Of a DNA stretch of 55,584 nt, positions 36,698 to 46,856 are shown piece after piece. The stretch lies in the IMG/VR virus record IMGVR_UViG_3300042673_000573; one strand, 5' to 3'. This DNA comes from an uncultured virus (IMG/VR IMGVR_UViG_3300042673_000573) (taxonomy: Duplodnaviria; Heunggongvirae; Uroviricota; Caudoviricetes). How positions within the stretch are numbered: position 1 is the first letter of the stretch; each line of letters starts with the position of its first letter. Made by a program: the position numbers and the translations under genes. Under the pieces are notes generated by a model that saw only the letters and a program-made list of their open reading frames with translations, searched no databases and was not told the origin of the DNA.

Positions 36698-37234
36698 TTA
36701 TTTACCTCCTAATATAAAACATAGTGCTATTGCTATAACTACTCCGATAAACGCTCCTATTGGTGCGTAATCAGCGTTCTCATCTAACCAATCAATCATA
36801 TATGTAAATGGGTTCATCTTAGTATGTATCCTCTACGCCTAATTCATAGGCTTTGTTTAGTAGTTCAATAAGGGCTGGTGTTACATCAAATCCGTTAGCA
36901 GTAATCATCTCTGCGAGAGTGTCCTTTGGGTACATCATTTGTTTATCCTTTGTTTGTTGTTATATGGCAAGTATAGCAGGATAGACTGACAAAAGCAACT
37001 CGACACGCCGTATATAGGGCCTATGTCTATGTGATATACACCACATCGATCCCCTAGAAAAAGTTATCCACAGGGTGATGTGTATAAGTAATGTGATGTA
37101 CCTCATATGTGACTAATCTCACAATGTCCGATTTACCCTATTTATACCCCTCAAAATGTCAGACCCCCCTGCTACAATTACAGTATAAAGAAAAACAAGA
37201 GGTAAAGAAATCCTCTAAAGAAAGGTGGTCTAAA

Positions 37235-37414
37235 ATGACTACACTAACAATAACAAAATGCGTTGAGCATAACCCTATGAAATCTGCTATCTCCGAAATT
37301 GGTGATGAGCAATTTACTTTCTGCCAAGATTGTGAAAATAACATTGAGCGTTGGTATAACGATACCGACCCTGAGCGTCTGCCTATGTGGACAGATTGGA
37401 AGGTGTCTAAGTAA
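37235..37414 (+). CDS. Small Cys-containing hypothetical protein
   Basis: AGAAAGGTGG RBS; C.EH..FCQDC. Confidence 0.65.
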   Translation: MTTLTITKCVEHNPMKSAISEIGDEQFTFCQDCENNIERWYNDTDPERLPMWTDWKVSK

Positions 37415-37590
37415 TGATTACTCTTACACTTACATCTTACAATGGTAACACTAAGAAAATGCCTTTCGTTACCGAACAAAAATTGCGTGAGTTTATCTCT
37501 GCGCTACCTTCACAATTAAATAAATCAACAACTCTAAAAGTAGAGTGCGACCTGTTAGCAATTAACGGAATTATTAGAGGGGAAAAATAA
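37414..37590 (+). CDS. Small hypothetical protein (paralog of 36509..36697)
   Basis: MITLTLTSYNGNTKKMPF...; TAATG coupling. Confidence 0.65.
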   Translation: MITLTLTSYNGNTKKMPFVTEQKLREFISALPSQLNKSTTLKVECDLLAINGIIRGEK

Positions 37591-38629
37591 ATGAGTATTT
37601 GGACTAAGTTCGCTACTGTAAGCGATTACCCTAAAGGCTTAATGAACCTATGCCCTTGCGGTCAGGTTGTATTAGCCCCCGCCCTGTATCACGAAGGGCA
37701 ACCTTATTGGGAAAATCCTAATAAGTGTAAAGAATTATTCGAAGGAGTAAAATAATGAGTACCTATGTAAGCCTCGCCTCTGTATGTGGCGCAACATCAG
37801 CAAGCGTTGATGTCTATGACTTAGACCTTAACCCTCACGGCGTTATCTGTTGCGATAACTGTGAGTCAATTATTCTATGCCGTAAGGCTTGGGACTTTCT
37901 CTATAAGGTAGGTAAGTAATGATAAAAGATGAATTGCGTGATGAAGCAGTTAAATTAGCAAAAGAAAAATACGGTGATAACTGGTTAGCAGGTCTATGGG
38001 GTTGCGCTGGTGTATTGCTAACAGAAAAAGATTTTAAAGTTATAATTAGCGTAATGGAGAAATAAAATGAAAACACTTCAAGAAAAACTTGACGCAGTAG
38101 CGTTAGAATTAGAGCCAGTACTTTGGGATTTACTAAATGAAATTGAGGAAAAATAAATGAGTAACTTTTTTATTAGCGGTAACGCATTGTTTTGGTTTTC
38201 TTTTATTTGCTTATTCTATGGATCTTATTTATTCGTGAAGGGCGAATAAAAAAACCTAGCAAAAAGTTATCCACAGGGGTGTGTATAACTAATGTGAGAT
38301 TAATCACATACGACACGCCGTGTTTAGATTTGACTTTTTGACATTTCTTTGCTATACTTACATAGTAAGAACAATTAAATAAAGACATTAGCCAATGAGC
38401 CTAAGCAAATAAGTGTGAGATAAATCACAATGAGCCTTAGCAAATAAGTGGCAAAAATGTCAGCCCCCCCTGATAGGATAGTATTATCACTTAAAGAAAG
38501 GTCAGAATAAATGACACTTGAAGAATACAAGCAAATGGTAGAGGCTCAACGCCTTGCCTCATTAGGTAAAGGCTTAGAAGCCCTACTGAAATCAAAAGCA
38601 ATACAAGAACAAATGAAAGAAGGCAAATA

Positions 38630-38839
38630 ATGTCAGCAAATGTTTATACAATCGAAAACCTACTTGTAGGAAAAACTTATCACTCAAAAACTCTAAAGGG
38701 TGAAATTATCTCAGCAGAAAAGTCTGATGTCTGGTACGCAGATTGCGAGTCTTATCGTGTTAAGGTACGCCCTCACTATCCCTCAGTATTTAATCTAAAA
38801 GATACATACCGAATACTTGCCGTAAAGGTTGGTGACTAA
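38630..38839 (+). CDS. Hypothetical protein
   Basis: ORF with RBS, coupled to upstream ORF. Confidence 0.65.
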   Translation: MSANVYTIENLLVGKTYHSKTLKGEIISAEKSDVWYADCESYRVKVRPHYPSVFNLKDTYRILAVKVGD

Positions 38840-39001
38840 ATGATAAACTCAGTTATGTCGATACCCTGCGAGGAATGCCACTCAACAGGTTTAATCTTTT
38901 TTGGCGATAATGATAATTTTGATGTCGAAACTTGTGAATGCGATTTTGGCATTGAGCAAGACCTAAACCAATTTAACAACTAAAGAATAGGAAATAAATA
39001 A

Positions 39002-39208
39002 ATGATAAAAGTAGAACACAAACTCCGTTTCGTTACCGAATTTGATGAGACTCATCCAATAGCACAAGAATTCTTGCGCCTTGATGAAGTTTCTCAAATT
39101 CATCTTTTAGAATCAATGCTAAAAGATTTACTAACTCCAAAACTAAAACCAGTGCTTGATGAAATCAATGCTAACGGGTCCTACGCAATTCTAAAGGTGG
39201 CCGAATAA
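39002..39208 (+). CDS. Hypothetical protein
   Basis: ORF in operon. Confidence 0.65.
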   Translation: MIKVEHKLRFVTEFDETHPIAQEFLRLDEVSQIHLLESMLKDLLTPKLKPVLDEINANGSYAILKVAE

Positions 39209-39296
39209 TGAGCGACTATTTAGACTACATTGATGAAATCTATGAAGAATTGGTAGATGAATTTGGACACGAATCAGAAAGCGAGTGTACTCACAA

Positions 39297-39488
39297 ATGA
39301 TGACACGAAAAGACTATGTCGCAACTGCTGAAATTCTAAAAAGTTATTCAGATTTAATTGACCAATTTACTTTTGAAGATTTAATCTATGACTTTTCAGA
39401 TATGTTTTTATCAGATAACCCACGCTTTAACCCAATGACTTTTAAAATTGCGTGTGGTGTAAATGATTTAGCAAATAGTAATTCATAA
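39297..39488 (+). CDS. Hypothetical protein
   Basis: MTRKDY...DNPRFN...F..ACG pattern. Confidence 0.65.
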   Translation: MMTRKDYVATAEILKSYSDLIDQFTFEDLIYDFSDMFLSDNPRFNPMTFKIACGVNDLANSNS

Positions 39489-40041
39489 TAAATAAAAATC
39501 CTGAGCAAGATCTAAAACTGCTCAAATTTTTTCTAGGCAATTTACCTAGCGTGTCGTCCACAGGTTATCCACAAGTCATTTAAGAAGTTATTTACGACAC
39601 GCCCGAAATTTTGTGAGTTTTATCACATAGGTTGAGCGTCTTACTATTTGGAATTACTCGCCAGTAGGTAGATAAATGTCAGCCGAAGATGATAGGATTA
39701 CATAGTAATAAGATAAAGAAAGAAGGCAGAAATGACCTCAGTAATAATAGACCAAAATGAGTTTTATCTCATTAAAGATGAAATGCGTTTTTGTTGTGAT
39801 GAGTCACAATTTAAATACATTTGTAAAGCACACGGCGAAAGTATGGGTTGCTACTTTTGCGAATTTGATTACTCTAATGATTGCGAGGAACAACACTAAT
39901 GGGATACATTGAGATTTTTAGAATTGACAACGAAGGCGCAGGTTGGGTAGACTTGGAGCAAGCCACGCCAGATGAGTTATTTAAGTTAGAGGTTGGATTA
40001 CTTAATGAAGGCGCACTATTTACAACTAAGGAGAACGACTA

Positions 40042-40263
40042 ATGGAAAATGAATACCTATACGCAGTAACAGTATCGTATGACAGTAAGCCCGTACATTG
40101 GACAGGGCGTTACTCAGACGCAGTATCCGCAGTTAGCGTGTTTAATAGTTTTGAGGATTGGGGATTTGCTGATGAATACTCAACAGTTAATTTCTCAGAG
40201 CCTTCAGGAAAATTACACACTAAGACTTTCTATCGTGAAGGCAGAAGGGTAGTGAGTAAGTAA
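40042..40263 (+). CDS. Hypothetical protein
   Basis: AAGGAG RBS. Confidence 0.65.
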   Translation: MENEYLYAVTVSYDSKPVHWTGRYSDAVSAVSVFNSFEDWGFADEYSTVNFSEPSGKLHTKTFYREGRRVVSK

Positions 40264-40430
40264 TGGAAATTTTTGAGTTTAATACTTTCATAAATGTCGA
40301 GGCTGAATCCTACGATGAGGCTATTGATACATTTCAATTCCAATTAAAGTATGGAATAAATAAAGATAATGTCTATGTCGCAGACATAAATCAATTAACT
40401 AACAACAACGAAAGCGTAGAGGTATAAATA

Positions 40431-40718
40431 ATGGGAAGCGTAACAGCAATTGGATTAGCAGATAGCGTTTTAGATTTAGAAACACAATTAGCCTATCACT
40501 TACAGGGTAATCACTACCCACCCGTACCACTTTCTATGGTACAACCTTGTATTGATGCTATTGACGCATACTATGATGAGGACTATGATAGATTTATTGC
40601 TATGCCCGAAGGCGTATTCTATAAGGGTATGAGCCACGCACCTGCCCACGCTATTGTAGACCAACACCACCTATCTTGGTTTATTGACCCAGTAGACGAA
40701 TACGAGGATGAAGACTAA
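40431..40718 (+). CDS. Hypothetical protein (HLQGNHYPP motif)
   Basis: ORF with GAGG RBS. Confidence 0.7.
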   Translation: MGSVTAIGLADSVLDLETQLAYHLQGNHYPPVPLSMVQPCIDAIDAYYDEDYDRFIAMPEGVFYKGMSHAPAHAIVDQHHLSWFIDPVDEYEDED

Positions 40719-40847
40719 TGATGACTTTAGCCCCCATAGATAAATGCCCTTGCGTTAAACACGATTGTAAGAATCAAGATGATTACACAAAAATGGAAGA
40801 CACTTGCGAAGAGTGTTTTATGGATTGCGTAGAGATGGATGGATAAA

Positions 40848-41093
40848 ATGTCTGATACAATGAAAACTATGGAATTGATCAAAGCCGATAACTTAACACC
40901 AGACCAACTAATGCTTGGTGATTTAATTAAAATTGGTGATGACATCGTTGAAGTTATTTTTATTGAAAGTGATTCTACTGGAGATAACTATGACATTGAA
41001 ATAGAAAATGAGTTTGGCGAAAGAGAAGTTAATCAGTATAGTTACACTGATACAATTCCTCTCTATGTTTTTGTAGATGAGTCTGACGAGTAA
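40848..41093 (+). CDS. Hypothetical SH3-like small protein
   Basis: QLMLGDLIKIGD beta-rich; start uncertain. Confidence 0.55.
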   Translation: MSDTMKTMELIKADNLTPDQLMLGDLIKIGDDIVEVIFIESDSTGDNYDIEIENEFGEREVNQYSYTDTIPLYVFVDESDE

Positions 41094-41525
41094 TAAGAAT
41101 TAATTTTGTGTGCTTCCCCGCACAAAATTTTCTAGCGTGTCGATGTGAGATTGATCACAGATTTAAGATTTGACATTTTAAGATGATGTATGCTAAGATT
41201 AGTTTATGACAACAAAGAAAAACGCTGAGGAATTACGCAGACTTATGGAACTCCGTAGGTCTAACGCTGCTTCTGCCGTACCTTCTAAAAAGGCTTACAA
41301 CCGTAAGAAATGTCAGTCCGAACTGCTACAATTAAAATATAACAACTAAGAAAGGTCGCCCCACTATGACATTCGAAAACGATGAAATCTATGATGAATA
41401 CTACGCAACAACCTGCCCTGAATGTAAAGAAAATGCCGTTGACGCATATGAAGAAAAGTGTACACACTGCTTACTTGAAGAAATGTCTTATACCTATAAT
41501 GAAGACATTGCCTTAGAGATGAGCC

Positions 41526-42266
41526 TTGGCCTTGACTACTAATACCCTTAAACTAAAAAGATCTAACGATAGAAAGGTGGCTAACCTTGTCACAAAAAAT
41601 GGAAAGCAAGCCGCAATTGCCAACACTTTTGGATTACCTGCTGGAAAGGCTTACTCGTGCCCTGGTGCTACCAGTGTTTGTGAAAGTGTTTGCTACGCAG
41701 GAAAACTTGAAAAAGTCTTCCCTTCAGTAAAGGTTAATCTATTACACAATTGGTCCCTGCTAAAAGACGCAGACTATTTAACTATGCTTAATTTAATTAG
41801 TGAGATGATTGCTGATTTTAAGGCTGATTGTATAAAGAAAGACGCCCCTATGCTATTTCGCATTCATTGGGACGGTGACTTCTTTAACGATACTTATACC
41901 ACTGCCTGGTCCGATGTAATCAAACTTAATCCTGATATTCAATTCTGGGTTTACACTCGTGTTAAGTCTGCTGCTCTCATCCTTAAGGATATTGAAAACC
42001 TGTCTCTTTACTTTAGCACTGATAGTGAGAATGTAAAAACTGGTGTTGATCTAAAAATTAATCAAGGTGTTCGTTTAGCATACCTTGCTAAGAATTTTGC
42101 TATTGGCCAAACAGATATGAAAGAAATGATTGGTAAGCCTGGTGCTAAGTGTCCTGAAAATCTAAAATCAATTCCACTTATCTCAACTAATGGAAGCGCT
42201 TGCGTTTCTTGCGGATTGTGTGTATACTCTAAAGCAGACATAGTTTTTTCTGCTACTAAGAAATGA
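41526..42266 (+). CDS. Gp88-like Fe-S (radical-SAM-related) protein
   Basis: CPGATSVCESVCYA, FRIHWDGDF, FWVYTR, C-terminal CxxCxxC. Confidence 0.75.
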   Translation: MALTTNTLKLKRSNDRKVANLVTKNGKQAAIANTFGLPAGKAYSCPGATSVCESVCYAGKLEKVFPSVKVNLLHNWSLLKDADYLTMLNLISEMIADFKADCIKKDAPMLFRIHWDGDFFNDTYTTAWSDVIKLNPDIQFWVYTRVKSAALILKDIENLSLYFSTDSENVKTGVDLKINQGVRLAYLAKNFAIGQTDMKEMIGKPGAKCPENLKSIPLISTNGSACVSCGLCVYSKADIVFSATKK

Positions 42267-42595
42267 GATAAATGAAAATTGCATTTGTAATGATACTAAC
42301 ATATATAATCATAATTACTTTTTTTTCAAGTCCCCGCTGAAAAGTGGAGGGCCTAGAAAAATCCTAGCGCAAAACTTTTGGTTTGTCAAGCATTTAAGAT
42401 GTGTTTAAGATCACACCCAAAACCCCTCCCGATTTGACATTTATGACATTTTTGTGCTACACTTATACTATAAACAAAACAAGGTAAAACTAAATAAACA
42501 GTTTCACATAGTGAGATTATCAGATAATAATTTGATAAATGTCAGTAGGAAATGTTATACTTAGGTATTACCCAAACAGAAAAGGAAAAACAAAA

Positions 42596-42763
42596 ATGGC
42601 AGTAACAAACGCAACTTACAAGGTAGGCGACCTATACACTTCACAGAAGTCAAAGGTAACAGGCACTATCCAAGAAATCTCACCAAGCAAGGACGGACAA
42701 TCAGTTCGTATCAAGTTAGATGTCAATGGCGCAACACGCTACACAACTTGGACAGCCAAGTAA
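42596..42763 (+). CDS. Small hypothetical protein
   Basis: AAAGGA RBS before ATG 42596. Confidence 0.7.
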   Translation: MAVTNATYKVGDLYTSQKSKVTGTIQEISPSKDGQSVRIKLDVNGATRYTTWTAK

Positions 42764-42866
42764 TCTAATTACTTATTCCTGAGCAAGAATTAAAAAGGCT
42801 CACTTAAATGTCAGACCCCCACGCTATAATAGATAAATACCCCACAAACAGAAAAGAGATAAAAAG

Positions 42867-43289
42867 ATGGCAAGAGCAAAAGCAATAAATGTAAAAATCC
42901 CAACAGTTCGTGTAATCGCAGGATTAGAGGAAGCACTAACTAAGTTAGAGGCAGACTACGCAACACAAGAACAAAAAGAAGCAGAGTTCCAAACTGCTTA
43001 CAAGGCTTGGCAGACAGAATTGGGAAATTGGGCTATTGCTCATTTCTCAAATGCTGAAAACCTCCGCACCAACTATCGTTCTTGGTCAGAAACACTAAAT
43101 GTTGATTTTGACATCAAGACAAAGGAAACAGACTTTCCAACAGAACCTGAAAAGGATTTTGAGGTTATTCACGGAAGCACCTACCGAGAGTCTAAGAAAG
43201 AAATTGCTAACGCAATTCGTATTCTAAAGATGACAGATGAGGAAACAGTAAATACCTCAACCTACAACGCAATCGCTCAGTATCTATAA
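42867..43289 (+). CDS. Hypothetical protein
   Basis: ORF behind a TGTCAG promoter. Confidence 0.75.
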   Translation: MARAKAINVKIPTVRVIAGLEEALTKLEADYATQEQKEAEFQTAYKAWQTELGNWAIAHFSNAENLRTNYRSWSETLNVDFDIKTKETDFPTEPEKDFEVIHGSTYRESKKEIANAIRILKMTDEETVNTSTYNAIAQYL

Positions 43290-43571
43290 TTAGATACAAC
43301 TCCTGAGTATGAGTCTAAACTGCTCAACCACGACCACAGAAATGCGTGGCTAAATAAATAGAGTGGAGAATTCGCCAGGCTGATTAGGGCGATCATAGAA
43401 ATACTATAGAGCGTCTACCCCTTAGACTGGATGGGGGACCAGTTCACACCAACTGTCAAATGAGGTGTAACTACCTGAGTAAGTATCAAAACTGCTCCCC
43501 GCAAGGGTCCTTGACAATTGTCAGTGGCCAGTAGTATAATTAAATTAACCAACTAACAGAAAGAGGCCCCC

Positions 43572-43991
43572 GTGGACCAACCAGTAATAGATAATCACTA
43601 TATGACACGAGAGTTTTTAGAAACAACTCTTGTACAAAACAAAGAACGCATTCAACAACTTGAGGAGCACATCCAAAAAGTAACTCAGCGCTCATATCAA
43701 GATTCTGCAGATAAGAATCGTATGGTTGAATCAATGCAAGAGTGGACCCTTGGAGAATTAGAAAACCAAGACATCACAGAAGAGCAAGCCGAAGCAATTG
43801 CAGAAATTATGGGCTTTGAATTAACAAAAGAATTCGAAGTTGAAGTTACTGTTATGTACTCAGTGACTGTTAATGCTCGTACAGAAGAAGACGCAACAAA
43901 TGCAATTCACGATATTGATTTTGATACTGTTGATTACAATTCAGATTCAATTGCTTATTTGTCATCATCAATTGACAGAGTGGATATTTAG
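43572..43991 (+). CDS. Hypothetical acidic protein
   Basis: AGAGG RBS, GTG start. Confidence 0.7.
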   Translation: MDQPVIDNHYMTREFLETTLVQNKERIQQLEEHIQKVTQRSYQDSADKNRMVESMQEWTLGELENQDITEEQAEAIAEIMGFELTKEFEVEVTVMYSVTVNARTEEDATNAIHDIDFDTVDYNSDSIAYLSSSIDRVDI

Positions 43992-44203
43992 TAGGGGGCT
44001 ACTAATAAACCTGAGCACGTTTAAAAACTGCTCACCTTTTAATTCCCTCAAAATTTTCCTAGCGTGTCGGTGTGATATTTATCACATATGTTTAAGATCA
44101 CATTTAAAAAATGTCCGAATTGCCCTATGTCTGGCTATACGATTTGACTTTTGTCAGCCTATGGGTGTATGATTAGATTATCAACAACAGAAAGAAGGAA
44201 ATC

Positions 44204-45226
44204 GTGGCTCACGATATTGAAACTCAAAACGGCAAGGCATCATTCGCATCATTCCGTGAACCTGCTTGGCACGGATTAGGTACAGTCTTTACAGAAGAAA
44301 AGACAACCGCAGAAATGTTGGAAGCAGCAAATCTAAATGGTTGGAATGTTCGTCTTGAAGATTTAGAAGCACCTACACACTTAACAAGCGATAAGCAATA
44401 CCAATATGTATTGCGTACAAATCCTACAGATAACGCTCAGACCGACATTCTTGGAATTGTTGGCGAACGCTATCACCCACTACAGAATGAAGATTTATTC
44501 TCATTCGGTGACAATATTCTTGACGGCGGGGGTCGTTGGGAAACGGCTGGCTCAATCAAGGGTGGTCGTGTTGTATTCGGTGCTTTAGCATTAGAGCGTG
44601 AAACAATTCTTGACCCTAACGGCGTGAGCGATAAGGTAAAAACTTATTTGCTCATCAACACATCACACGACGGCTCGATTGCTATTCAAGCAAGTATCAC
44701 ACCAGTTCGTGTTGTATGCGCTAACACTCTTAACCTTGCTCTTGGTGGCGTAGGTCGTAAGAAGAATAAGGGCATCAAGCAATCTTTCAAGATTCGCCAC
44801 ACACAGACCGCTAACGGCAAGGTACAAATTGCTCGTGAAACTCTTGGTCTTGCTAATGCTTATATGGACGAATTTGATATTATGGCTAAGGCTATGATTG
44901 AAAAAGAAGTTTCTGCTAAGCAATTCAATGACATCATTCTTGCTGCTTATGCTAAGCCAGAAAAAGATTCTAAGGGTTCAATGAAAAAGTGGGAAAATAA
45001 AGTTGATGTCATCAACGATATTTACACTGGTGAATTTAACGGAATGATTGCTGGTAATGCGTGGGGTGCTTTCAATGCGCTAACTGAACGCCTTGACTGG
45101 TATCGTTCTGCTCGTGGTGGTTCTAACGAATCCATTCTCGCATCAGCATCAGGATTTGACCCTGCTATTAACGCAGAAAAAAATCGTTTGCTAAAAGTTG
45201 TACAAAATGTTATGTCCTTAGCATAA
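44204..45226 (+). CDS. DUF932-family phage/plasmid protein
   Basis: MAH...PAWHGLG, WETAGSIKGG, NTSHDGS, TPVRVVCANTL, IRHT, WGAFNALTE. Confidence 0.85.
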   Translation: MAHDIETQNGKASFASFREPAWHGLGTVFTEEKTTAEMLEAANLNGWNVRLEDLEAPTHLTSDKQYQYVLRTNPTDNAQTDILGIVGERYHPLQNEDLFSFGDNILDGGGRWETAGSIKGGRVVFGALALERETILDPNGVSDKVKTYLLINTSHDGSIAIQASITPVRVVCANTLNLALGGVGRKKNKGIKQSFKIRHTQTANGKVQIARETLGLANAYMDEFDIMAKAMIEKEVSAKQFNDIILAAYAKPEKDSKGSMKKWENKVDVINDIYTGEFNGMIAGNAWGAFNALTERLDWYRSARGGSNESILASASGFDPAINAEKNRLLKVVQNVMSLA

Positions 45227-45268
45227 CAAAAAATTCCTGAGCAAGAATTAAAACTGCTCTCCATAACT

Positions 45269-45342
45269 GGAGTGTTAGCATAGTTGGTTAATGCGCTACC
45301 CTGTCACGGTAGAGATCACGGGTTCAAGTCCCGTACACTTCG
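45269..45342 (+). tRNA. tRNA-Asp (GTC)
   Basis: Acceptor GGAGTGT/ACACTTC, anticodon arm CTACC-CTGTCAC-GGTAG, T arm ACGGG-TTCAAGT-CCCGT. Confidence 0.9.
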
Positions 45343-45495
45343 CAAAATTTCCTAGTAAAAATATTTCTAGCGGTGTGACATTTATCACATTCTTTATTAA
45401 GATGATCAATAATATTTCCCTGATTTAGGATTAAGATGGACTTGACATTTCCCCCAAACCTTCCATTTGTCAGTCCCCTACGCTACAATTAAGAT

Positions 45496-45714
45496 ATGAC
45501 CAAACAAGTGGCAATATATGAAATGAACTACTCCTGCTCTCCTGGTGGCGTTGACTGCTGGGAAGCAACCATTCAAGGTTATGGGGAGAGCACTACCGCC
45601 TCTGACTTTAAGACTGCTGGACAGGCCCTTAATTGGGTGCTTGACAGATACCCTGACGAAATGTTAGAATTAGTAGTAACCTCACTTCCAGCCTACGAAA
45701 AGGAATATGTATGA
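45496..45714 (+). CDS. Hypothetical protein (leaderless)
   Basis: ATG 6 nt after TACAAT. Confidence 0.65.
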   Translation: MTKQVAIYEMNYSCSPGGVDCWEATIQGYGESTTASDFKTAGQALNWVLDRYPDEMLELVVTSLPAYEKEYV

Positions 45715-45941
45715 CCCAAACAGTATTAGACCCAATGCTACAAGACTACTACTCTTGCGACCTTGCTATCTCTATTACAAATATCAAGGCTAAGAATAGA
45801 CACCACGCAGAAGCCGTTATGCAAACCTTCATAGATGAGATTGCTAAAGTAATGAATGATGAACTTAGTTGGGATGACGCCCAATGGGATATACAAGAAA
45901 ATGTTTTCCTACCTGAGTTAGGTGAGTGGCATACAAAGTGA
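45711..45941 (+). CDS. Hypothetical protein
   Basis: AAGGA RBS, ATGA overlap. Confidence 0.65.
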   Translation: MTQTVLDPMLQDYYSCDLAISITNIKAKNRHHAEAVMQTFIDEIAKVMNDELSWDDAQWDIQENVFLPELGEWHTK

Positions 45942-46241
45942 ATACCATTGACGACCTAATCAATGAAATATATGAAAGCAATTACTCTCACTTAGAGTTT
46001 GAGGAAAATATGGGTGGAGAGGCTTGCGACTGCCATATCCACACTACACTTAATACTATCGCACATTACGCAGGAATAGAGGTAGGCTAATGTTAGGATA
46101 TACTGAAACTGATATTGCAGTAATGACAGATGCTATGGAAGATGCTATCAAATCAGGTAGACTCTCAGATGAGATAACAGATGGTTTGGAGAAGGCTATG
46201 TCCTTCTTTGATGGCCTATGGTCAGAAGGGTACTTTGACTA

Positions 46242-46448
46242 ATGAAAGTTAGAATCAGTCTTGAACAAACCATAGATATAGATGATGCTATGTCTAATGA
46301 TATAGGGTTTGAACTATACGGTCCACCTGATATGAGCACGGAAGATAAAGTAGATTATCTAATGGCTCGATTTGCTGAGGACATAGATACTATGGTAAAG
46401 TATGATGAAGTCTTGGGCAACATCTCAGTAGAATACATAGAGGACTAA
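46242..46448 (+). CDS. Hypothetical acidic protein
   Basis: TAATG coupled ORF. Confidence 0.6.
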   Translation: MKVRISLEQTIDIDDAMSNDIGFELYGPPDMSTEDKVDYLMARFAEDIDTMVKYDEVLGNISVEYIED

Positions 46449-46636
46449 TGAACATTGAATCCCGTGAAATTACATACCGCACCATTGTTGAGCAAATCTT
46501 CTTTGAGGACGGCACAGAGTTAGTAGTAACAACTGGCTGGCCTGAAGGTGGCGGTGGAGACTTTGATGTTAAATTAGACTGGGTAGAAGGCGAAGCGCCT
46601 GAATGGGCAAAGGAGTATGTTCACAATGTGGAGTAA
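46448..46636 (+). CDS. Hypothetical protein
   Basis: TAATG coupled ORF. Confidence 0.6.
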   Translation: MNIESREITYRTIVEQIFFEDGTELVVTTGWPEGGGGDFDVKLDWVEGEAPEWAKEYVHNVE

Positions 46637-46856
46637 GTATACATTTGTTTGCGATCCTGATGAGTGTGATGCTCTCATTCAATTTACCGCCAGGGATGGC
46701 TATGGATTCCCTAATGGATCTGTAGAGATGAGATGCCCTTGTGGTAGGAAGATGGCTTATATTAGTATTGAAGATGCTTGGGAGCCTATCATTACAGATG
46801 TGAGCAAGGTCACACCCCGTGAAGTTGTAAAAATAAACACGAACCCGTATAATTAA
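46617..46856 (+). CDS. Small zinc-ribbon-like protein
   Basis: CDPDEC...CPCG. Confidence 0.55.
   Translation: MFTMWSKYTFVCDPDECDALIQFTARDGYGFPNGSVEMRCPCGRKMAYISIEDAWEPIITDVSKVTPREVVKINTNPYN

Follow-up and report, generated by a model that had tools for sequence, protein, structure and literature searches.

A compact RNA pseudoknot recurs behind stop codons in a phage genome and across phages and bacterial chromosomes, and may guard message ends

Why would a phage set the same small RNA structure behind one gene after another? The question is raised by a 55,584-nucleotide (nt) stretch of DNA, referred to here as the window, from the uncultured virus IMGVR_UViG_3300042673_000573 (Caudoviricetes), in which a reading of the sequence alone had picked out six copies of a compact element, most of them at gene 3′ ends. 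We find that this element is a real, widespread and uncatalogued pseudoknot of about 28 nt (the knot, hereafter), and we tentatively favour the view that it would be a structural guard, mainly of 3′ ends, left on the upstream mRNA against 3′-to-5′ exonucleases. All six positions proved correct and all lie on the plus strand, with the loop C at 39501, 42779, 43303, 43475, 44011 and 45237. Stem lengths are given in base pairs (bp), ORF stands for open reading frame, and the copies are as follows:

39498–39523, plus strand: copy 1; stem 1 of 3 bp, stem 2 of 5 bp; 8 nt past the TAA of an ORF ending at 39488; a U-rich run comes next
42775–42801, plus strand: copy 2; stem 1 of 4 bp; AG tail variant with stem 2 of 4 bp; 11 nt past a TAA at 42763
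43299–43325, plus strand: copy 3; stem 1 of 4 bp; a G-U pair in stem 2; 9 nt past a TAA at 43289
43472–43497, plus strand: copy 4; stem 1 of 3 bp; a G-U pair in stem 2; not closely preceded by a long ORF
44006–44033, plus strand: copy 5; stem 1 of 5 bp; 15 nt past a TAG at 43991
45232–45259, plus strand: copy 6; stem 1 of 5 bp; between the stop codon of a DUF932 gene and tRNA-Asp

When run on the window, a covariance model made from 120 homologues returned the six copies at 35–43 bits, the next best match scoring 13 bits, and the entire 63.5-kilobase genome record holds the same six knots. When no more than two mismatches to the 23-nt core were allowed, the window gave 7 matches, whereas 200 shuffles averaged 0.085 and never exceeded 2; the seventh (19828, minus strand) has a stem 1 of 2 bp only and was not picked up by the covariance model. 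Five copies do lie within 15 nt of a stop codon, as the sequence-only reading had it (8, 11, 9, 15 and 6 nt, measured up to where a 4-bp stem 1 begins), and one of these, copy 6, sits right before tRNA-Asp, the gap being 9 nt. This last copy is kept in all 79 relatives with enough sequence, 74 being found by pattern and 5, which are longer-tail forms, by eye. Two contigs from RNA datasets (four of 14 were examined) span copy 2 by 39–53 nt, and may be DNA.

Each knot consists of a 3–5 bp stem 1 with an invariant closing C-G pair, a loop CU, a 5-bp stem 2, one bulged base and an AAAC strand, the latter probably lying in the minor groove of stem 1, where base triples may form. The arms of stem 1 vary between copies and yet always pair, with 3–5 Watson-Crick pairs in 6/6 copies. 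The proposed GAGY/GCTC pairing of stem 2 likewise stood, but its extent had to be revised: GAGYA pairs with UGCUC over 5 bp in five copies and over 4 bp in copy 2, where the CU tail is replaced by AG. The G-U wobble expected from the C-to-T variants is present in copies 3 and 4. Single-strand folding gives the stem-2 hairpin alone, the program being unable to form pseudoknots.

Homologues provide the test of this fold. In a search that left stem 1 free, at least three Watson-Crick pairs were found in 142 of the 146 viral matches; by position, 130, 130, 131 and 88 of 132 distinct viral copies are paired, compared with 123, 57, 37 and 41 after shuffling, and the closing C-G is present in 127/132 with both of its positions free in the search. 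For stem 2, 80 related loci were searched with that stem free, which yielded 169 distinct sense-strand copies against a single antisense one. Two-sided changes occur at four stem 2 pairs, with only 7 mismatched cells in the 169 copies: G-C to A-U or U-A in 16 and A-U to G-C in 14, and further G-C to A-U, C-G or U-A in 10 and C-G to U-A in 2. The wobble pair of stem 2 is U-G in 34 copies versus C-A in 3, and in 26/169 the terminal A-U has become A-G together with an adjoining C-to-A change, as in copy 2. Another alignment has 94.7% of its cells paired, but its rows had been picked for pairing and it is partly circular, so that the covariation claim rests on the 169- and 132-copy sets. That is, two interleaved stems covary, wobbles exceed their mirror-image mismatches and one strand is strongly preferred, which together argue for an RNA pseudoknot of the H type, as had been proposed, and not for a DNA operator. 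The latter, a GAGCA-N11-TGCTC inverted repeat bound by a dimeric protein on double-stranded DNA, could draw on the fixed 23-nt spacing, the repeat itself and the nearness of several copies to promoters, but it is largely refuted already, and hardly credible, by the covariation of the interleaved second stem, the 169:1 strand count, the excess of T-G over C-A at one pair and a spacing that is tied to stop codons.

The knot is by no means restricted to the window. The sequence-only reading had mentioned neither this spread nor the resemblance to coremin described below. An exact scan of viral contigs found it at 137 loci at least, and at least 119 bacterial genome loci from many phyla carry it as well, with stem 1 intact in 114 of 121 matches. 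Carriers among cultured phages include Staphylococcus, Streptococcus, Mycobacterium (Labelle) and Synechococcus (S-EIVl) phages and one crAss-like phage; Mycobacterium phage Patience showed no match over the knot region of Labelle, and a match in a Vibrio phage turned out on re-examination not to be a copy of the knot. Since the fixed-length patterns miss longer-tail forms, all counts are lower bounds. A tail variant three bases longer was observed 3′ of the DUF932 gene at five loci (L184, L204, L205, L206 and L216). No named family was recognized: Rfam 15 gave no match at the gathering threshold over the knot, either in the window or in 40 genome loci, and with E up to 10 the window returned only the tRNA and three chance matches. 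The motif was not described in the open-licence literature searched, although large candidate-RNA catalogues in supplements may list it, nor was any exoribonuclease-resistant RNA of phages or bacteria found there. The hammerhead ribozyme, whose core is CUGANGA, was considered as an identity and rejected, as the loop reads CUGAGYA, the other parts (stem II, GAAA and the NUH site) are missing and there is no Rfam match.

The distance to the stop codon is where the knot becomes informative about function. An ORF ends nearby in 386 of 461 distinct copies. In those 386 the gap between stop and a 4-bp stem 1 is 5–9 nt in 205, with 77 copies at exactly 5 nt, 6 at 4 nt and none at 0–3 nt, whereas stop triplets not terminating an ORF abound at 0–4 nt (12–22 per position). 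With the related set left out, the loop C lies 9 nt past the stop in 42 of 248 copies and closer in only 4; among the DUF932 copies the A-rich spacer varies in length, but in 0/74 is it shorter than 5 nt. This hard edge at 5 nt matches the front of a terminating ribosome, and a spacer of 5–9 nt is one that places a pseudoknot at the ribosomal helicase (PMC8915115). The plain reading is that the spacing keeps the knot folded while ribosomes finish the upstream gene, the reason being our inference, and an action on the ribosome itself is the alternative.

What lies on the other side of the knot is equally one-sided. A hammerhead core occurs 3′ of the knot in 35 viral loci, of which 30 have a type III fold under a strict rule, 4 have no fold and 1 a weak one; the predicted cut falls 5–21 nt past the knot, and 5–8 nt past it in 18 of 25 distinct cases. 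Three scans for the reverse order, with the hammerhead 5′ of the knot, yielded 0, 4 and 33 loci, of which 0/37 fold as a hammerhead. The predicted ribozyme cut sites are thus paired with the knot on one side only. Moreover, a tRNA follows the knot at a gap of 3–14 nt in at least 120 loci, and a tRNA also comes next in 78 of 79 DUF932 relatives; in a set of 250 diverse copies a tRNA follows 19 and precedes 1. A cut by RNase P or by a hammerhead 3′ of the knot leaves the knot at the new 3′ end of the upstream RNA. The neighbouring features of the window that bear on this point are:

44204–45226, plus strand: DUF932 gene (PF06067, phrog_1221), whose message would end in copy 6
45269–45343, plus strand: tRNA-Asp(GTC), starting 9 nt past copy 6
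42809–42830, plus strand: promoter-like TGTCAG-N10-TATAAT, starting 7 nt past copy 2; a candidate by sequence
43511–43540, plus strand: promoter-like site matching the consensus at 12 of 12 positions, its TGTCAG box being at 43519; 13 nt past copy 4
44144–44173, plus strand: promoter-like site lying in the gap from copy 5 to the DUF932 gene; 10 of 12 consensus positions, TGTCAG at 44152
39677–39705, plus strand: weaker promoter-like site (TGTCAG), not an exact match; between copy 1 and the next genes

From general tRNA processing, the 5′ end of tRNA-Asp would be an RNase P cut 9 nt past copy 6. The promoter-like sites past copies 2 and 4, and the weaker ones past copies 1 and 5, would delimit four short units, each running from promoter to knot. 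The TGTCAG-N10-TATAAT motif has 7 exact matches in the window against 0.29 expected, and of 212 copies taken from relatives, 60 are next followed by a promoter-like site and 50 by a tRNA, while none has such a promoter within 70 nt upstream. A sigma-70 scan of the 250 diverse copies gave no excess of downstream promoters, so that the promoter argument is limited to the lineage of this phage. Copy 4 is itself followed by a 3-bp GCAA hairpin and the promoter-like site. With its portal, head and tail genes and a ribonucleotide reductase, the window belongs to a tailed phage; the knots sit in a region of small genes of early type, GP88 and DUF932 among them, and together these genes suggest a freshwater actinobacterium as the putative host.

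These contexts are the basis of the reading that we favour. The knot would fold in the mRNA and form a barrier at message ends by its shape alone, in this phage chiefly as a guard of the 3′ end. It would be set as near to the stop codon as the terminating ribosome allows, a spacing that is observed and whose presumed reason is that the knot stays folded during translation. A free 3′ end would then be made just downstream, by RNase P at the tRNA or, in other phages, by the hammerhead (the sites are seen in the sequence, the cutting is presumed), or by another route, through termination or an endonuclease cut followed by trimming. We infer both that nucleases would be blocked and in which direction. 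Among the functions that had been suggested for the element from its sequence, a nuclease block or processing boundary appears the best supported. Stem-loops that protect 3′ ends, with which the repetitive extragenic palindromic (REP) hairpins are grouped, are one point of comparison. Stem-loops lacking a U tract protect the 3′ ends of Rho-terminated Escherichia coli RNAs from PNPase and RNase II; like the knot they are placed just past the stop, have no U run and are proposed to stop these enzymes, but they are simple hairpins of varied sequence, whereas the knot is a sequence-conserved pseudoknot found across phyla (PMC6061677). In an engineered RNA, a small pseudoknot guards the 3′ end after a cut (PMC12311787). 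For phage hammerheads flanking single genes, it has been suggested that they split long transcripts of the phage into messages of gene size (PMC3088659), and the knot stands 5–21 nt before such cuts in other phages; the knot itself is no hammerhead, and an Rfam search found none in the window.

A number of observations weigh against a guard of 3′ ends. The closest tested relative of the knot blocks 5′-to-3′ and not 3′-to-5′ degradation. At about 20 chromosomal loci the UGA of the loop is itself the stop codon, in which case ribosomes would melt the knot. The tRNA excess comes mostly from one lineage, 76 of the 94 downstream tRNAs being its tRNA-Asp. The next feature is an ORF led by a Shine-Dalgarno (SD) sequence in 71 of the 212 copies of relatives, and an SD-led ATG lies within 150 nt in 108 of the 250 diverse copies; in the same set, a terminator is already present downstream in 10, and in 4 a −10 box ends 7 nt before stem 1, so that the knot would head the transcript. 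A tRNA-like arm is found 5′ of the knot in 17 viral loci (14 distinct), in several of which a gene then follows, while three have the knot between two tRNAs. Finally, in Bacillota phages and prophages, including 8 genome loci, the knot tracks a scaffold gene downstream while the upstream gene varies, and a shield of the 5′ end would suit high-copy head proteins there. Some copies in other genomes would probably guard the 5′ end, and the element may therefore be a two-way guard.

Those last contexts raise the strongest rival, in which the knot is a shield in the 5′-to-3′ direction that stops RNase J or hinders scanning by RNase E, so that the downstream RNA (the next gene, a pre-tRNA or a small RNA) persists for longer than the upstream gene. 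This is compatible with a 3′ guard; as the main function we consider it rather unlikely. Its appeal comes in part from coremin, also called xrRNA-C, a motif of eukaryotic RNA viruses, beny- and cucumoviruses among them, that shares with the knot a 3–4 bp first stem closed by C-G and often lies directly past a stop codon (PMC6546385, PMC10520033). In both, the loop opens with C and has A next to last, and the G on top of stem 1, the five bases next to it and the AAACU run stand in the same register; a natural resistant coremin loop, CGAGUAA, is the knot loop minus its U (PMC10520033). The CUAC tail itself is found in a few knot variants. The promoter-proximal copies, those past tRNAs, those before scaffold genes and those followed by an SD-led ORF would all be served by such a shield, and H-type pseudoknots impede RNase E scanning, an 11-pair one being, however, only a modest obstacle (PMC9943677).

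Coremin and the knot nevertheless differ. The coremin loop follows the rule YG(N)nAD, with G needed as the second base (PMC10520033), whereas the knot has an 8-nt loop, C-U-G-A-G-Y-A-H in 6/6 copies, in which the first Y and the next-to-last A fit but the second base, U, does not; this U was fixed in the search patterns. The last loop base is C in 11% of homologues, which also goes against the rule. In addition, coremin needs a second hairpin to stop Xrn1 (PMC6546385), right past the spacer, where the knot usually has none: a hairpin of −3 kcal/mol or better was found in 29/254 copies, against 26 at a place 12 nt further on and 6.5% in shuffled sequence, a count that leaves out 2-bp hairpins, which can suffice in coremin (PMC10520033). 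The knot further differs in its 5-bp Watson-Crick stem 2, its occurrence in DNA phages and bacterial chromosomes and a context that often favours protection of the 3′ end. A word search for phages in the available text of PMC12397905, PMC10321173 and PMC6546385 returned no mention. The knot thus resembles coremin but, by its sequence, lacks two of the defining features, and would be kin of the coremin kind rather than a member. In xrRNA-WCC, a variant of coremin with Watson-Crick pairing, e.g. the one in Sanxia picorna-like virus 5, a canonical loop-spacer pseudoknot is built on the coremin scaffold, as in the knot, and a natural example lies 8 nt past an ORF, but a tetraloop, a 3-bp stem 2, a one-base loop 1 that is obligatorily G and a second hairpin set it apart (PMC10321173). 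A 5′ shield would also be useless where a hammerhead cuts 5–8 nt downstream or where the next gene has its own promoter past the knot. Among 46 host genomes, 25 carry an RNase J that passes the cut-off; two chromosome-level ones lack it, but both have a shorter beta-CASP protein, and many of the genomes are incomplete bins, while phage contigs can be mis-binned.

The ribosome itself might be the target, the knot acting as a roadblock that pauses the terminating ribosome or stops it from sliding after the stop, and so insulating a ribosome-binding site, tRNA or ribozyme that lies downstream. Such a role would account for the hard edge at 5 nt, which is sharpest if distances are taken to the loop C; ribosomes occur in every host, and in lysates coremin makes scanning ribosomes stall and favours frameshifting (PMC10520033, PMC10321173). 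The same edge, though, fits avoidance of the ribosome equally well, and 75 of 461 copies, copy 4 among them, lack a 45-codon ORF with its end no more than 80 nt away; on balance we regard a roadblock as unlikely. Recoding in particular finds no support, given the short open extension, the TAA-rich stops and the lack of slippery sites: a slippery heptamer was found in 0/129, the median open frames are 7, 8 and 4 codons, a median of 7 in-frame codons follows the stop and that stop is TAA in 190 of 265, and the knot was accordingly rejected as a frameshift or read-through signal. Luteoviral frameshift knots such as that of beet western yellows virus (BWYV) share with it a compact H-type fold, a short loop 1 with C, an A-rich strand crossing stem 1 and a distance of 5–9 nt from the A-site codon, but the phage knot has no slippery site or open extension; the BWYV knot does not resist Xrn1 (PMC10321173).

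It is quite improbable that the knot is a protein- or ligand-binding RNA, a self-cleaving RNA or an antitoxin-like decoy. The many invariant unpaired bases and the ribozyme and tRNA neighbours could be taken in this sense, and the recurrent swap of the CU tail for AG (26/169) hints at a specific tertiary contact, but the invariant bases are those that are structural in coremin, no Rfam ribozyme, riboswitch or antitoxin matched in the window or the 40 genome loci, and a further ribozyme would be superfluous next to a hammerhead. The aptamer and decoy functions suggested in the sequence-only reading found no support, as there is no constant neighbour gene and the copies are dispersed rather than tandem. 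Type III antitoxins consist of pseudoknots repeated in tandem in front of a toxin gene; repeats of this ToxI type were rejected, since the copies are scattered over 5.7 kilobases and no toxin family was found among the neighbours scanned. Equally, a terminator or polymerase pause based on the pseudoknot and closing each early transcription unit seems highly improbable. Five or more U in the 8 nt past the knot occur in 66/254 copies versus 9/254 at a control place, and in this phage the knots come before new promoter-like sites; yet the U run is missing in 188/254, polymerase must cross the knot to make the hammerheads and tRNA-Asp (there is no promoter between), and an intrinsic-terminator scan called none of the window copies, its criterion being a GC-rich hairpin with a U run.

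Several further observations were made around the knot. One concerns chromosomal loci from several bacterial phyla, where the UGA of the knot ends a short peptide that is conserved and SD-led (about 20 residues, with an H-C-x-x-G-C motif), the peptide lying about 60–80 nt before the knot (loci L220, L221, L226, L231, L234, L238, L243, L244, L257, L259, L265, L269, L274, L280, L285, L287, L295, L298, L299, L317, L326 and L335). Two loci have an in-frame 4-codon insertion, two peptides tested had no NCBIfam match, and the neighbours include ArsR, PerR, arsenite methyltransferase and glutamine amidotransferase. The peptide is possibly a small protein, or a leader, with a link to metals or redox, and its translation would melt the knot. 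Head scaffolding genes of at least two families lie directly downstream of the knot in Bacillota phages (L230, L253, L260, L270, L277, L282, L283, L286, L337 and L338). The DUF2800 RNA (RF02960) starts right 3′ of the knot at L281 (1526–1686), with a similar arrangement at L029, L119 and L315; at L320 the knot lies between CRISPR-like direct repeats, in a spacer-like position, and at L319 within a tandem repeat.

Within the window, a second and larger H-type pseudoknot lies directly 3′ of copy 3 (43329–43367, plus strand; stem CCACG/CGUGG, with a loop CCAC facing GUGG past an A-rich strand). It shows pair changes in relatives, where it is often found directly 5′ of the main knot, and has no Rfam match. 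Next to it, at 43371–43413 on the plus strand, an element of about 43 nt is near-invariant in about 30 relatives while its flanks vary; it has a hairpin UCGCC/GGCGA with a CUGAU loop, a conserved A-rich tail and hammerhead-like letters, without a hammerhead fold. Eleven TGTCAG boxes on the plus strand stand about 10 nt before a −10-like hexamer (37157, 38458, 38631, 39677, 41311, 42540, 42809, 43519, 44152, 45468 and 47042), and this set is probably an early-promoter signature of the phage. TGTGA-N6-TCACA palindromes (37030–46814), which we take to be similar to CRP-family sites, have 15 matches in the window at no more than one mismatch against 2.9 expected, 8 of them perfect, and lie mostly in early intergenic regions 5′ of promoter-like sites. 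Downstream of copy 1, the box TTATCCACA at 39567–39575 presumably corresponds to the DnaA-box consensus.

Returning to the guard of message ends, a broader proposal is possible, doubtful as it may be, namely that the fold by which plant viruses stop Xrn1 is an old and general RNA punctuation mark of phages and bacteria, parked at the edge of the terminating ribosome and capping whichever end RNase P, a hammerhead or decay sets free, with one 28-nt structure resisting exonucleases from both sides. The clean Watson-Crick stems of the knot could settle the structure of coremin, which is called unsolved in papers from 2023, and the knot would be a very small portable stabilizer of RNA. If the proposal is true, a knot together with a ribozyme or a tRNA would be a protein-free cut-and-cap module, by which polycistronic phage RNA is turned into separately stabilized messages, and the sequence-conserved 28-nt knot, with its many host phyla and its presence in chromosomes, would be a common and so far unannotated control of mRNA stability.

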